Counted from the first letter of the stretch, positions 3,001-9,000 are shown. The stretch: DNA of 64,000 bases from Escherichia coli (GCF_048403405.1 NZ_CP183129.1); one strand, 5' to 3'. Program-made: the numbers.

Positions 3001-6000
3001 AGGTAAGGAATAATCTGTAGCCGGGTTTCTTCACTCAATTTATTCAATGTCGGGTTATCCAGTGCCATCGCGTAATTGAGCAGACCTTCAATCGCAAACT
3101 GAGGATCCTGAACACCAACTTTTGCCAGGAATAAGGCAAACCCAAGCGGTGCTTTCGATTGCACCATCCCCTGCGCAGCCATCACATCCGTAATCGTTAA
3201 ACCACCAGAGCCTGTCGCCGGTGCGTCATCACTCAATTTTGGAGATTTTGGGGAGTAATATTTTGGTAAGGCTTCAAGGTTCATGCTCGTTCTCCACTTA
3301 CGCCAGTACGCCTATTGCCAGCGCACGATCGATAAAACGAAATATCAGCTCCAGCTGGGAGCCATACTTCTCTTCAAATGCCACGGTATCCGCATGCAGC
3401 TCGTCGTGATGCTTTCTGCACAAAGGCAACACAAAAAGGTCATGCGCTTTTGTACCCATTCCCCCCTGACCGTGGCCTATCAGGTGGTGGGGATCATCAG
3501 CAGGTTTTCCACAACATGCGCACGGCTGCGTCTTAACCCAGCGCGTGTACTTTTCATTAACCCAGCGGTGACGTTTTGGGCGTAACATAAAAGACTCCGG
3601 CGACTCCGGATCCACTTTCAGCGCCAGCACCTTTTTCGCCTTATCCTGGATGATGCTGGTGGCAGGAACCGAAGGCACAAGGTCACTTTCCCGGGTAACA
3701 GACGGCACAACAGGCTTCGGTAATCTCAGTGCCTTACGGGCTGCACTTTCCGGTAAGGCATCCGCCAGATCATTACGAATCAGCCACCAGCACAGTTCCG
3801 GCATTGTCACAACATGACTGTCATCAAAACCGAGATCCCGACGCACAACAGACAACACCCAGCGGGCACAGTTATCCGTTGCCATTGATTCCAGCCGTTC
3901 CGTGAACTGATCGCGCAGCTGGTTATCGCAGTGCCAGCACAGACGGATTGCGCCCGGAGCGTGTCGCATTGTTGTCATATTCTCGCTGTGCCAGTCGGAA
4001 TGAGGCCACTGGCAGCCTTTTTCACGAAGTAACCAGCTTTCAAGACATTCCACGCCACCAGCACGACGGATCACTGCCTCATTGCGGAACACGGCCCGAA
4101 CGGCAGGATCATCCGCCAGCGGTTGTGATGCCGCCGGAACGGCACCACTGGCGAAAGATGAATAACGTTCCGGCTCAGGCTCCAGCAGGACACGCCCCTG
4201 CATAAACAAGGGCATCAGCTCTGAACCTGGTCTGAACAATACGATCCCCATACGCGGGGCAATTTCAGGGGTCAGTAGTGCTCTCACGGTCACCTCAATG
4301 AACGGTATCGAGCAGCTTTAACAGCTCAGGGAATCGGGATTCGAAGAAATGCGGCTGCGTCTCGCGCGGATTTGCAGGACTGGTGATGTTCTTGCCGAAC
4401 ATGCAGCCTTTCGCGGTCAGCGACCAGAATTTTTTGATGTTGTTAATCGCGGTACGACTGTATCGTTCGCGTTGTTCAACGATCCCCAGCTTCGCCATCT
4501 GGTGATATGCCTGATTAGCCGTCAGGCGGATACCATACTGCTTCAGCAGTGCACTCAGCGACAGCGTAGGGCGGCTTGAACCATCTGGCGCATCAGCAGG
4601 TGCATCAATGGCATAGATCGGCATAAGTTCAGGAAGACCAGCTACCTTTGATAATTTCTGGTATGCACCAAGTTTCGAGGAGTTTGACAGATTTAGAGTC
4701 TTTGCTGCTGATTCAAGCAGAATGACCCCGGATTTAATTTTGTCGGATGTGGTTTCTTCTGGTGATGAATTATGAAGCGCATCAAAAGTACGTATCACTT
4801 TTAAGCTGAATGCCGGGCTGATCCACATTGCATATGCATAGACCAGCTCTTTACAGACATACGTCCCACCATTGCGCCCCTGAATGGTGATGACAGGAAT
4901 ACTACGGGAATCTCCCGTAGTTTCTTCTTCCAATAATTCCACAAGAGCCTTCGTTTCAGGACGACGCATAAACTCGTGAACTTCCAGCGAACGGGAGGAG
5001 CGATTCTCACCAGCGGCAAGAAGAGCAGCTTTCTGAAGGTCGTTAAGACAGTAGTTAGATTCGAAGTACTGGCGCACAGAAACGCCATCAATTACAAGCA
5101 ACTGATTCATTGGTTTCTCCACAAATTTTTATCCACGAGCGGGACTGCACTCCCTTTTCGTTGATGCAGGATGAACTTACTGCGATTTTTAATAGTTATC
5201 AAGGATACACTGTTCATAAATACAGTATCTTTAACGAGGTAATACCCAAATTTAGGGTGTTGCTCAATTCCGTTACCGAGTTGCTAATTTGCAACTCGCT
5301 TTTTCGTACTTACTGATAGTGATCTCGACCTTCCCCTCCGGGATAACCGGTCCCCACTCCACCAGCATTCTTTTCACCTGACTGTCGTCTTCCCACACAC
5401 CCGCGTGGGTCAGGGCGTCAAACAGCGCCTTGTTATAGTTGTCCAGATCGCGGATCCGGTTATCCGGAGGAAACAACACGATCTCCACTGAAGCAGGTGC
5501 CGACGTTGGTTTTGGCAGACGACGTAACTGCTCAACTATTGCTGCACACGCCGCGCTCTGGAATTTTCGCCCCGCCGCGCTTATCAGGCTCTTACCAGCA
5601 AACGCCCCTTTGTTGGGGTGTCGCCAGTACGTGTTCACGCTGGTCGGAAAAGGCAGGATCAGCTTCATACTTTCAGGCCCCTCTCATGTAACCAGTGGGC
5701 TGCACGCAGCCTGGCGTTTTCCTCACCGGCAAGCAGTGAGCGGATAATCCCGACCGCCTCGCTGTCGTCGTCCTTCACCACGGTATGAAGCGTGATCCCC
5801 CGGGCCACACCACGCTTTATCGTGATGACGCCTTTTTTCTCCAGTGCGCGAAGATGCTCCACCGCTGCATTCACTGAACGGTATCCCAGCATGGTTGCCA
5901 CCTCCTGATTGGTTGGCGGGAAGCCACGTTCTTTCTGATAAGAAATCAGCATATCCAGCACCTGCTGCTGGCATTGAGTTAAAGTCGTCATGCCGCCATC

Positions 6001-9000
6001 TCCCTGACCAGTTTTTCCGCCTGCTGGCGAACCTGCGCCAGAAACGCCTCACCACATGCCTCAAGTTCATCGCGCCCGATGTAGCTGATTGCCGGTCCCT
6101 TCCAGGTCTTGTCGAAAACAGCAATAGCACCAGCGAAGAAAGCGCCTGTCGGCACCTGCTTCTCATCTTTCGGGATAAACCAGGCAGGCAGTTCAAAACC
6201 AATACGCCCGCGAATAAAAGCAATATGATCTGCATCTTCCGGCCACCACACTTCGCTGGTGGCAGCTTTGATCAGGAAAACATAGCGCCCGCCTTTATCA
6301 CGCATGGCACTGGCATGTTTCATGATGTAACGCATGCCGGTGATGTATTGCCCCTCATGCTGACTGGCGCGGCTGTATGGGGGATTACCAAAGGCAGCAC
6401 CTTTAAGCTCCGCAAGACGTTCTGACCAGTCATGCGCCAGCGCGTTGTCTTCCGCCGTGTAATACGCGGTACATTTGGCGTTATCACCGTCAGTAAACAG
6501 ATCCAGGACAAACGGGCCAAACAGGGTGTTAATTCCCCAGAAAATGTTATCCGGCGTGCGCCACTGATCGCCCACTTCCTTCAGTTCATGGGCTGGTTTG
6601 TTCCGCAGCTCCACCAGCTCCTGGCAATATTTATTACTCATTAAGCCCCCACGTAATTCCCTGACAGATACCACTCATCACCCGATACAGCGCGCTTGCT
6701 GCTTTTCCGTAAGCACCGCTCACGACGTGCCAGAAAATTGTTTCGTTCTGGCTGGGAGTGGCTTTCACGGAATGCCGCCATCCACACGGTTGCAGCACGA
6801 CGGTATAAGCCCCTGGACTCCAGTTCTTCAGCCTGGCGGGTCAGGCACAAAATCACCCGGGGATCGTTAGTGCCGACATAGAAATTGCGCACAGGTCTGG
6901 TTTCACGAACTGGTTGTGGTTCCGGCTCCTGCGCTCTCTCAGTCAGGCGCGGGAAATGTCTGCGTGTATATCCTTCACAACGGTGAGCCACACGCCCACT
7001 CTGACGTAACTTGCTTGCAGACTGCAGAACGCGCTGCCGTGAGTAACCTGCAAAAGCATCCGCAATGTCTCCGGAAGTACACCCCGGATGGGCTTCAATG
7101 AATTTCTGAACTTCATTCAAAAGACTCATGATTATCCCCTGAATCCTGCCGGGATCTGGCTGTAGTCCACGTTGTCGTAACTGGCTTTGAAGTACGGGTC
7201 CTCGCGTCTGGCTGCAGATACCGCAGGAACTTCCCAGGATTCTTCGAAATGACGATCCGGACCAAAGAACGTGACAGCCTGTTTCACAAATTGTGTGCCG
7301 CTGTTACCCATCGCAGATACCCAGCCCGCGTAGCGTTTCACACCTTCCAGCATGGTTTCGGGTTTTACCCCCTCATTCAAACGGGCTTTCCAGGCTTTGA
7401 AGGCTGCAGATTTTGAATTGCCACCAGCACGTTTGGGGTATGCCAGCCATGCCTGCTCAAACTCCGGAGAGTATTCCGGTCGGTTTGAACGAACTCGCAC
7501 AGACTCATCAGCAGATGCACCAACAGCTATTGGTTCATTGACTGGTTCTTTGACTGGTTCAAAAGAGTGACTGGTTCTGGGTGAATCTCCTGCACCACCC
7601 CCTGGTGCAACTCCTGCACTACCTGGTGAATTTGCTGCACCAGATAGTGAATTATTTGCACTACCCCCTAGTGAATCTCCTGCACCATCAAGATGAAGGA
7701 GATAGATATTACTTGAGTTACCTTTTTCACCTTTCCGGGTGACTTTTTTTACCAGCCCGGAATCACAAAGGGCCGCAATATGATTCATCACAGAACGTTT
7801 GCTAATCTCGCACTGGTCAGCAATATGCTGGTAGCTGGGCCAGCACTCACCCTGATCGCTGGCATTATCAGCCAGCTTGATCAGAACCAGTTTTCGCAAT
7901 GGATTACCCACTCGAATTTTCATCGCTTTAACCATCAGCTCCATACTCATGCTGCACCTCCGAGATGCTTCATGTTTTTTCCGGAGCAAAAGGCTATAAG
8001 CGGCATACTGATGCGGTAATTACGGCCCAGCGGTTCACAAATCACCTTCTGACATTCACGGTCAACCAGGCTAACACGTAGAACATGCCCTGCAGGCGTG
8101 GTGTACCACTGCCCAACTGTAGGAATTGATGTTTTTTTACGCTGAAGCAAACGGCAAATATTGAGGATCAACGGATTAAGCATGACGATGCCCTCCGCTG
8201 ATATTCAGGAGACGGTGAATATGAAAATTAGCCTTATCCGCCAGACGAATACGTTCAGCCTGCAAGTTAAGAAGGGTTTCTACCAAAACCTGATGCGCCT
8301 GCGGATCCGAAAGAGTTACCTTGCGCAGAGCACGTAGTGCAGTTGTTACATAACTGAGTTTATGTAAGTCTTCATCATTCAGACGAGTGAGGGCTGGGAC
8401 AGTAGCCATGATGGCAGCCTCCGATAACAGTGAATTACCTTCACCACCGGAAACGCCAATTTCGCTGGTGGTGAACTGAACGGGGTTGGCGTAACCGGCG
8501 TTATCGGAAACCGGCGCACCTTTCGGTGCCCCCGTCCAGCCCACCATAATTTGGGTGTGCACAGACGCAGACGATAAAAAAGACGCTGGCGCGTCATATA
8601 TCGCCGATAACATTTCCAGGACGCCAATCCCGTCACCCGCTTTATAAGGTGCCTGAACAGTGTAACGTCCCGGAATGGCAGAATCAATGTGCTGGTGGTC
8701 CTTCACACTCAACAAAATCACGCCTGAATTTCCACAAAGGACTAAAGCACTCATGCGGGTAGTCTTTGCGAAGATAGATAACGCGCTGTGTTTCTGGTTC
8801 CCAACGAATAACATGGACATAAAGCCCTCTTCCGTCACGAAACCAGCGGTTAAGTTCCCGCACAACTCGCCCCCCACAGTCAGGTAAAGTTCTCTGTGGT
8901 TACTTACAGCCAGGTAATTTGGTAATCTGCATTCATGCCGTAACAACAGGTGTTCAGCGACACTGACCACCAGCTGTTGCGACAAACGGTTATTTGCCGT

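Follow-up and report, generated by a model that had tools for sequence, protein, structure and literature searches.

A LexA-type DNA-binding-domain protein without a protease domain and an orphan Dam-family methylase as independent accessory genes of an Escherichia coli lambdoid prophage

Introduction

A stretch of 64,000 nucleotides of Escherichia coli DNA (GCF_048403405.1, NZ_CP183129.1), here called the window, carries a gene for a phage N6-adenine methyltransferase (hereafter the methylase) whose end overlaps the start of a gene for a 108-amino-acid protein resembling the DNA-binding half of LexA. We coin the name LexN for this small protein. The arrangement raises the question of whether the two genes act together, or whether they are neighbours of separate origin and separate function. 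The methylase and LexN prove to be independent accessory cassettes and not a coupled module, and both are ordinary, already annotated genes of a nin-type region. Interference with the SOS response, which a preliminary description of the window had offered as one role of the pair, is plausible for LexN alone on the basis of its sequence.

In this study, we examine the domain content and family of each gene, their association across phages, prophages and complete genomes, and the occurrence of LexA operators around them. The account of the whole locus that we favour, and consider fairly probable, combines independent nin cassettes with a methylase that would serve the lytic phase and a LexN that would bind SOS boxes. 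The parts of this account differ in strength, and each is weighed below where its evidence is given.

Results

The two genes and the overlaps that join them

Both open reading frames of the preliminary description were recovered on the minus strand, as was the short overlap between them. The features on which the argument turns are as follows.

5988-6641, minus strand: the methylase, a phage Dam-family N6-adenine methyltransferase with an NPPY motif, 217 amino acids (PF05869, TIGR01712), start codon ATG at 6641
5665-5991, minus strand: LexN, 108 amino acids, a LexA N-terminal winged helix followed by a two-helix tail, with no S24 protease domain (PF01726)
5988-5991, minus strand: ATGA stop/start overlap of 4 nt between the methylase and LexN (TCAT on the plus strand)
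5665-5668, minus strand: ATGA stop/start overlap of LexN with RusA, read from the sequence
5273-5668, minus strand: RusA Holliday-junction resolvase, the usual gene downstream of LexN (PF05866, E=4.4e-14)

LexN is the LexA winged helix without the cleavage domain

Residues 1-65 of LexN span the whole 65-position PF01726 LexA_DNA_bind profile (E=2.9e-19), and the alignment to E. coli LexA covers residues 2-86. No S24 match was found in LexN, and the protein stops at residue 108. Against the model of full-length LexA, TIGR00498, it scores 71 bits, under the cut-off of 110.95, because the S24 protease half is missing. LexN is thus a LexA winged helix without a protease domain, as had been proposed from the sequence; with neither that domain nor the score of the family, it is not a LexA, and it holds no domain responsive to RecA*.

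The predicted structure agrees with the profile match. An AlphaFold2 model built from a 15-sequence family alignment (mean predicted local distance difference test score, pLDDT, of 82) contains a winged helix-turn-helix with helices at residues 6-22, 28-35 and 40-52 and strands at 56-58 and 66-68, followed by a low-confidence acidic linker (69-74) and two further helices at 75-88 and 93-103. Foldseek placed this model on DNA-bound E. coli LexA (3JSO) with a root-mean-square deviation of 1.0 A over 68 residues, at 50% identity. Existing annotation already points the same way, LexN being labelled a "LexA family transcriptional regulator" by NCBI and a "transcriptional repressor" in PHROG 362. 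PADLOC made no defence-system assignment for LexN and returned a weak match to a model for CARF proteins containing a winged helix-turn-helix.

Exhaustive HMMER searching was needed to reach the LexN family at 40-50% identity, a word-indexed search having given close enterobacterial relatives only. It yielded about 10 representatives of 105-135 amino acids, 40-52% identical to LexN and matched almost end to end. Many database proteins of 140-350 amino acids (P0132, P0133, P0149, P0152, P0153, P0155 and P0157) have two LexA-type DNA-binding stretches in tandem, and each may be a pseudo-dimer of the LexA head within a single chain.

LexN may bind SOS boxes or an operator of its own

LexA contacts its operator through Ser39, Asn41, Ala42, Glu44 and Glu45 (PMC3091678). 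LexN retains four of these five residues, S39, N41, A42 and E45. With this reading head and the modelled fold, LexN would act specifically as a repressor at SOS boxes, a mechanism that we put forward tentatively and rate at slightly under an even chance.

The window contains one candidate for an in-cis target of LexN:

5208-5227 (core 5210-5225), no strand: canonical LexA (SOS) box TACTGTATTTATGAACAGTG, in the spacer between RusA and KilA-N

This box is a perfect CTGT-N8-ACAG with 16 of 20 consensus matches. It lies 46 bp past the RusA stop codon and before the gene for a KilA-N domain protein, in a spacer of 150 bp. Its position suggests that the KilA-N protein, possibly an antirepressor, is controlled by LexA. 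An alternative KilA-N allele, 66-70% identical, abuts RusA and has no box. We considered the in-cis box as evidence of a LexN target and rejected it as such, since the box tracks the KilA-N allele and strong boxes are no commoner in regions with LexN than in those lacking it.

SOS boxes also occur in a Klebsiella-type sub-lineage of LexN loci, where a terminator and a promoter-like sequence are followed by a strong SOS box (for example TACTGTTTATATATACAGTG) and then by a string of genes. These sites lie at L095:3480-3580, near 3467 in locus L088 and near 3137 in locus L092, and the string reads 77-amino-acid open reading frame, LexN, 66-amino-acid open reading frame, RusA and DUF968; two of the three also have an annotated Q gene behind it. 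Such an arrangement implies that host LexA controls the nin-distal genes and, where it is present, the late antiterminator in distant LexN lineages, and it gives some support to a role of LexN at SOS boxes.

Two other features of this sub-lineage are recorded here. The ~77-amino-acid protein upstream of LexN (L083:246-536, L088:3713-3961, L092:3722-3955, L095:3724-3951) and the ~66-amino-acid protein downstream of it (L083:966-1169, L088:4405-4608, L092:4402-4602) have no Pfam match; they show 45-70% identity from locus to locus and recur with LexN as a set of three genes. In addition, an open reading frame of 95 amino acids at L092:3310-3597, between the SOS box and LexN, encodes the C-terminal domain of RecA only (PF21096, E=9e-10), and one operon thus encodes a protein with only the RecA C-terminal domain and a protein with only the LexA N-terminal domain. 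This open reading frame was not found in any other locus examined.

Several observations weigh against the assignment of LexN to SOS boxes. The fifth contact, E44, is replaced by valine in LexN, and distant members of the family differ at positions 41, 42 and 45; given this variation in the reading head, some LexN lineages may read other operators. The box at 5208-5227 is found in every locus with this KilA-N allele and is not linked to LexN. SOS boxes are not enriched near LexN, being present in 2 of 14 LexN-positive and 6 of 14 LexN-negative loci. As to dimerisation, an AlphaFold2 prediction of a LexN tandem with a (G4S)6 linker (predicted template modelling score 0.33, pLDDT 67) held no interface information. 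A literature search under several names found no experimental study of LexN. Finally, the sole characterised truncated LexA homologue, gp6 of phage GIL01, is an activator: it turns on the late promoter P3 through a binding site of its own, which overlaps the -35 element (PMC6182141).

The last point is the starting point of the alternative that survives best, in which LexN is a phage-specific transcription factor that, like gp6, has its own operator and activates or represses a phage promoter, be it that of the late, Q or KilA-N genes, without binding SOS boxes in general. Alignment of the LexN family profile with gp6 by hhalign gave a probability of 96.6% over 63 columns at 32% identity, confined to the winged helix; BLASTP returned no pairwise alignment between LexN and gp6. 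The change at E44 and the variable reading heads of distant relatives would also fit this alternative. However, the LexN of the window keeps four of the five LexA contacts and gp6 has a different recognition helix, the Q antiterminator already serves late transcription in these phages, and no conserved non-SOS palindrome was identified, though such motifs were not searched for systematically. We therefore regard an operator private to the phage as unlikely, and SOS-box binding as the better founded proposal for LexN.

The methylase and LexN are independent cassettes

The preliminary description had joined the methylase and LexN in one coupled module. Put in full, this would be a co-selected and translationally coupled pair in which, for example, LexN regulates or targets the methylase, or in which the two reprogram the host jointly by epigenetic and SOS routes. 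Two facts speak for it. One is the 4-nt overlap. The other is that 7 of the 11 lineages taken at the 50%-identity level have a methylase directly upstream of LexN; the distant LexN relatives (40-51% identity) that often have such a neighbour have it from differing families (PF05869 Dam, PF00145 C5, PF02086 D12 and C5+D12 fusions), and the recurrence of unrelated families at one place looks at first sight like convergence.

The overlap loses its weight on comparison with the other side of LexN. RusA is joined to LexN by the same ATGA, the LexN frame ends 4 nt into RusA in 8 RusA-anchored loci, and the same 4-nt overlap was seen in mEp390, P0126, P0159 and P0239. Overlaps of this kind are described as typical of lambdoid nin regions (PMC8022706). 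Being generic to nin regions and shared with RusA, the overlap is no evidence for a special pairing.

Each gene, moreover, occurs alone at high frequency. The methylase is missing exactly in 15 of 80 IMG/VR loci whose LexN is 99-100% identical, and there PerC lies at -488 relative to LexN and not at -1138. Wherever an IMG/VR locus includes downstream DNA, RusA adjoins LexN at an unchanged offset, and RusA is also the neighbour of LexN in most of the distant lineages. In phage SfIV, the junction consists of the 3' end of the window's PerC gene joined to the 5' end of LexN. Both borders of the cassette share the microhomology GTCAGGGA...GGC.TAATGA, which is what a cassette swapped at gene boundaries would show. 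Of the complete E. coli genomes, 1663 hold an intact methylase-LexN junction and 760 an intact direct PerC-LexN junction, two counts that may overlap.

Phage records give the same picture. The methylase family is found in 586 of them, including many virulent phages of Salmonella, Vibrio and Lactococcus, and LexN in 63. In Salmonella phage 118970_sal3, PerC is followed by a methylase of 70% identity and this by RusA, LexN being absent; LexN without the methylase is found in SfIV, mEp390 and a Klebsiella phage.

A control anchored on RusA bears on the association itself. One genome was taken per GTDB species, which left 28 enterobacterial prophage regions with enough upstream DNA, and each was classified for LexN and for any methylase between the replication genes and RusA.

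LexN present: methylase present in 10 regions, absent in 4
LexN absent: methylase present in 11 regions, absent in 3

The presence of one gene is independent of the other (Fisher p=1.0, n=28), and about three quarters of the regions have some methylase in this place, with LexN or without it. Against this result stands the small size of the sample and its classification by tblastn with a limited set of methylase queries. Occupation of this one slot by methylases of three unrelated families (PF05869, PF00145, PF02086) also speaks for independence. The adjacency of the methylase and LexN arises because two neighbouring slots are often filled, which reflects slot order and not joint function. The two genes are independent accessory cassettes, and a coupled module is very improbable.

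LexN is a maintained gene

Judged by itself, LexN might be what decay has left of a full-length LexA- or CI-type repressor gene, with no function. LexN does align with LexA up to the hinge, and an Ala-Gly pair in it falls opposite Ala84-Gly85, where LexA cleaves itself under stimulation by RecA*. This pair is not conserved in the LexN family and LexN has no catalytic domain, and a retained cleavage site was accordingly rejected. Against decay, the length of LexN and its non-LexA tail are conserved across homologues of 40-50% identity; the tail (about residues 75-103) follows the pattern EAV..R.LL....AR.RA...L, with A97 and L101 invariant. The ratio of nonsynonymous to synonymous substitution (dN/dS) between LexN and its relatives is below 1, at about 0.1-0.4 in rough pairwise estimates where synonymous sites were unsaturated. 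In addition, thousands of genomes hold an intact LexN gene, with translational coupling on either side of it. The conserved tail and the dN/dS values show that LexN has been maintained as a gene rather than left as a decayed repressor, and the remnant explanation has next to no probability. In one MAFFT alignment, the tail was set opposite LexA residues 127-134 and 157-165; this was judged an artefact of aligning a short tail with a long gapped sequence.

The methylase is an orphan of the phage Dam family

The methylase matches Pfam PF05869 "Dam" with 155.7 bits (cut-off 28.1) and the NCBIfam equivalog TIGR01712 "phage N-6-adenine-methyltransferase" with 253.9 bits (cut-off 97.05). The catalytic (D/N)PPY motif is present in its translation as FGNPPYSR. 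A sequence search detected no solved structure for it, and PADLOC assigned it to the generic MTase_II and oMTase (orphan-MTase) models only. No restriction enzyme was found among its neighbours (PerC, LexN, RusA, KilA-N, DUF968 and Q), all of which are kept in natural variants that lack the methylase. The methylase is an ordinary orphan member of the phage Dam family, and the preliminary description was correct in calling it an orphan and in setting it apart from restriction-modification.

A restriction-modification or defence pair of the methylase with DUF968/HNH or RusA as nuclease, to which the MTase_II label and the HNH-like DUF968 gene 1.7 kb downstream might point, can be dismissed as hardly credible, since DUF968 and RusA persist without any methylase (loci L107, L116 and L122, mEp390, SfIV) and a clean loss of the methylase with both neighbours kept would be lethal beside a true restriction partner. 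LexN as the controller (C) protein of a restriction-modification system was likewise considered and rejected: its winged helix is of the LexA and not the Xre type, and no restriction gene is present.

The target of the methylase can be approached through a relative. VT2-Sakai orf32, a PF05869 member, is 30% identical to the window methylase, and we infer that it is M.EcoVT2Dam, the sole relative of the family found with a reported specificity. M.EcoVT2Dam is stated to target GATC (PMC6602927). By this likeness the window methylase is possibly specific for GATC. Two points weigh against that assignment, namely that the identity of orf32 with M.EcoVT2Dam is our own reading and that a transfer of specificity is unsafe at 30% identity. 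A link to the non-specific adenine methylases of the Hia5 type was considered as well; the Hia5 paper contains neither VT2, HP1 nor PF05869.

Host Dam leaves the virion DNA of lambdoid phages under-methylated (PMC8022706), and this provides a rationale for a phage-borne methylase active in lytic replication. The methylome of a lysogen is for two reasons a weak test of the enzyme, one that could easily be negative with an active methylase: its gene belongs to the early-right operon, which is repressed there, and the reported target of its relative, GATC, is already methylated by host Dam.

Two side observations concern other methylases. Some PF05869 relatives have C-terminal extensions unlike LexN, among them L084:3001-3894 (297 amino acids, Salmonella phage 118970_sal3) and L086:2826-4004 (392 amino acids, without similarity to LexN), and the methylase cassette is therefore itself modular. 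In related prophages, strong SOS boxes (for example TACTGTAAAAATAAACAGTA) stand directly upstream of a gene for an N6_N4-family methyltransferase, ~3.4-4.9 kb downstream of RusA: near 6691-6710 in locus L095 (gene at 6782-7777, after Q), and at about +3.4 to +4.9 kb in loci L099, L107, L115 and L126. These suggest a LexA-controlled orphan methylase in another slot of such prophages.

Setting of the locus in the prophage

The remaining genes around the methylase and LexN are given here.

7132-7989, minus strand: replication-initiator-like helix-turn-helix protein (HTH_36/DnaD_N; "HTH domain protein" in RefSeq), the start of the nin-type region
6641-7129, minus strand: PerC/YfdN-family protein, 162 amino acids, with a C-terminal PerC domain (PF06069, E=1.9e-9), ATG at 7129
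4295-5122, minus strand: KilA-N domain protein, beyond the SOS box (PF04383, E=1.3e-15)
3298-4293, minus strand: DUF968/HNH-like nin-region protein (PF06147, E=3.4e-81)

In the E. coli lineage, the methylase or LexN slot nearly always has PerC/YfdN on its upstream side. The PerC family includes activators of virulence genes in enteropathogenic and enterohaemorrhagic E. coli.

A 2-kb stretch of the locus matches a prophage of E. coli YDC107 with 100% identity, and 2701 of the 5426 complete E. coli genomes contain a match to it. It is also matched by 51 phage records, which include mEp460 and phages converting to Shiga toxin (Stx) types Stx2a, Stx2c and Stx2k; phages SfV, SfII, SfIV and cdtI likewise encode the 108-amino-acid LexN. 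In its RefSeq annotation, the YDC107 copy is a lambdoid prophage with ymfK as CI-like S24 repressor, ymfT as cro-like gene and a set of replication genes, and after these it has on one strand, in order, PerC/YfdN, the methylase, LexN, RusA, KilA-N, DUF968/HNH and the Q antiterminator. The region is the nin-type section within the early-right operon of a lambdoid prophage with e14-like immunity. From this position in the operon, the genes would be silent in the lysogen. A simple sigma-70 scan of 4900-7300, which is a weak method, found no promoter, and this fits read-through from pR.

Discussion

The data presented here allow a mechanism to be proposed for the locus. The genes from the replication initiator through PerC, a methylase slot, a LexN slot, RusA, KilA-N and DUF968 to Q would all be expressed from the early-right operon and, by virtue of that position, would be made only after induction or infection. 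The methylase would then methylate the fast-replicating phage DNA in lytic growth, which could protect this DNA against restriction in the next host, complete its Dam-type methylation, or both.

LexN, to judge from sequence and model, would read LexA/SOS boxes (CTGT-N8-ACAG) as a dimer through its LexA-type head. RecA* should be unable to inactivate it, because the S24 domain is absent. It could thus keep, or impose again, the repression of SOS-box promoters of host or phage while host LexA is being destroyed, and its conserved two-helix tail may supply the dimerisation or stability that normally comes from the LexA C-terminal domain. The fullest form of this proposal, in which LexN is a RecA-proof SOS repressor of widespread prophages that is made early in lytic growth and closes LexA-controlled promoters again, we consider somewhat unlikely.

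As a pair, the methylase and LexN carry little weight, their adjacency being a by-product of the assembly of nin regions from independently exchanged cassettes. The interest of the locus rests on LexN. A methylase-LexN or PerC-LexN junction is present in ~2400 of 5426 complete E. coli genomes (~45%), and LexN is carried by medically relevant phages, the Stx2a, Stx2c and Stx2k converting phages and the Shigella serotype-converting phages among them. If SOS boxes are bound by LexN, phages would encode in it a brake on the SOS response, with relevance to competition between prophages, to the SOS-induced expression of toxins and colicins and to the induction of Shiga-toxin phages. The targets of LexN could then include host SOS functions, the LexA-controlled antirepressors of rival prophages, colicin and lysis genes and defences wired to the SOS response, and LexN might also influence how Stx phage development is timed. 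Under the same assumption, LexN would autoregulate the SOS-box operon of the Klebsiella-type sub-lineage, in one case together with the protein that consists of the RecA C-terminal domain only.

Comparison with known systems

Phage orphan methylases of the M.EcoVT2Dam type (PF05869/TIGR01712) resemble the window methylase in hidden Markov model family, in the NPPY motif, in their place in a lambdoid nin region and in having no cognate nuclease. The window methylase is 42 amino acids longer than VT2-Sakai orf32, and the slots differ: it lies between PerC and LexN, whereas orf32 lies between NinB and NinE. The methylase and LexN also share the general properties of lambdoid nin accessory genes, which stand between the replication genes and Q, have ATGA overlaps, are individually dispensable and are mosaic in distribution. 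The gene content found here (PerC, Dam, LexN, RusA, KilA-N, DUF968) is unlike the classical lambda/P22 nin set.

Compared with host LexA (TIGR00498; PDB 3JSO, 1LEA), LexN is ~50% identical over residues 1-68 and has the same fold. Unlike host LexA, it has no S24 protease/dimerisation domain and no Ser119/Lys156, and its C-terminus is the two-helix tail, which is unrelated to LexA.

The closest parallel in kind is GIL01 gp6 (Fornelos et al. 2018, PMC6182141), which, like LexN, is a small phage LexA winged helix without an autocleavage domain. The two differ in length and architecture, gp6 having 66 amino acids and no helical tail and LexN 108 amino acids with an additional conserved helical tail of 35 amino acids. 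They differ also in DNA recognition, since gp6 has a distinct, K38-dependent recognition helix whereas LexN keeps LexA contact residues. Their settings are likewise unlike: gp6 comes from a tectivirus in which host LexA serves as the repressor, and LexN from a lambdoid prophage with a CI-type repressor of its own. LexN is therefore a protein of the same kind as gp6, a phage LexA DNA-binding domain minus the cleavage domain, and not its close relative.

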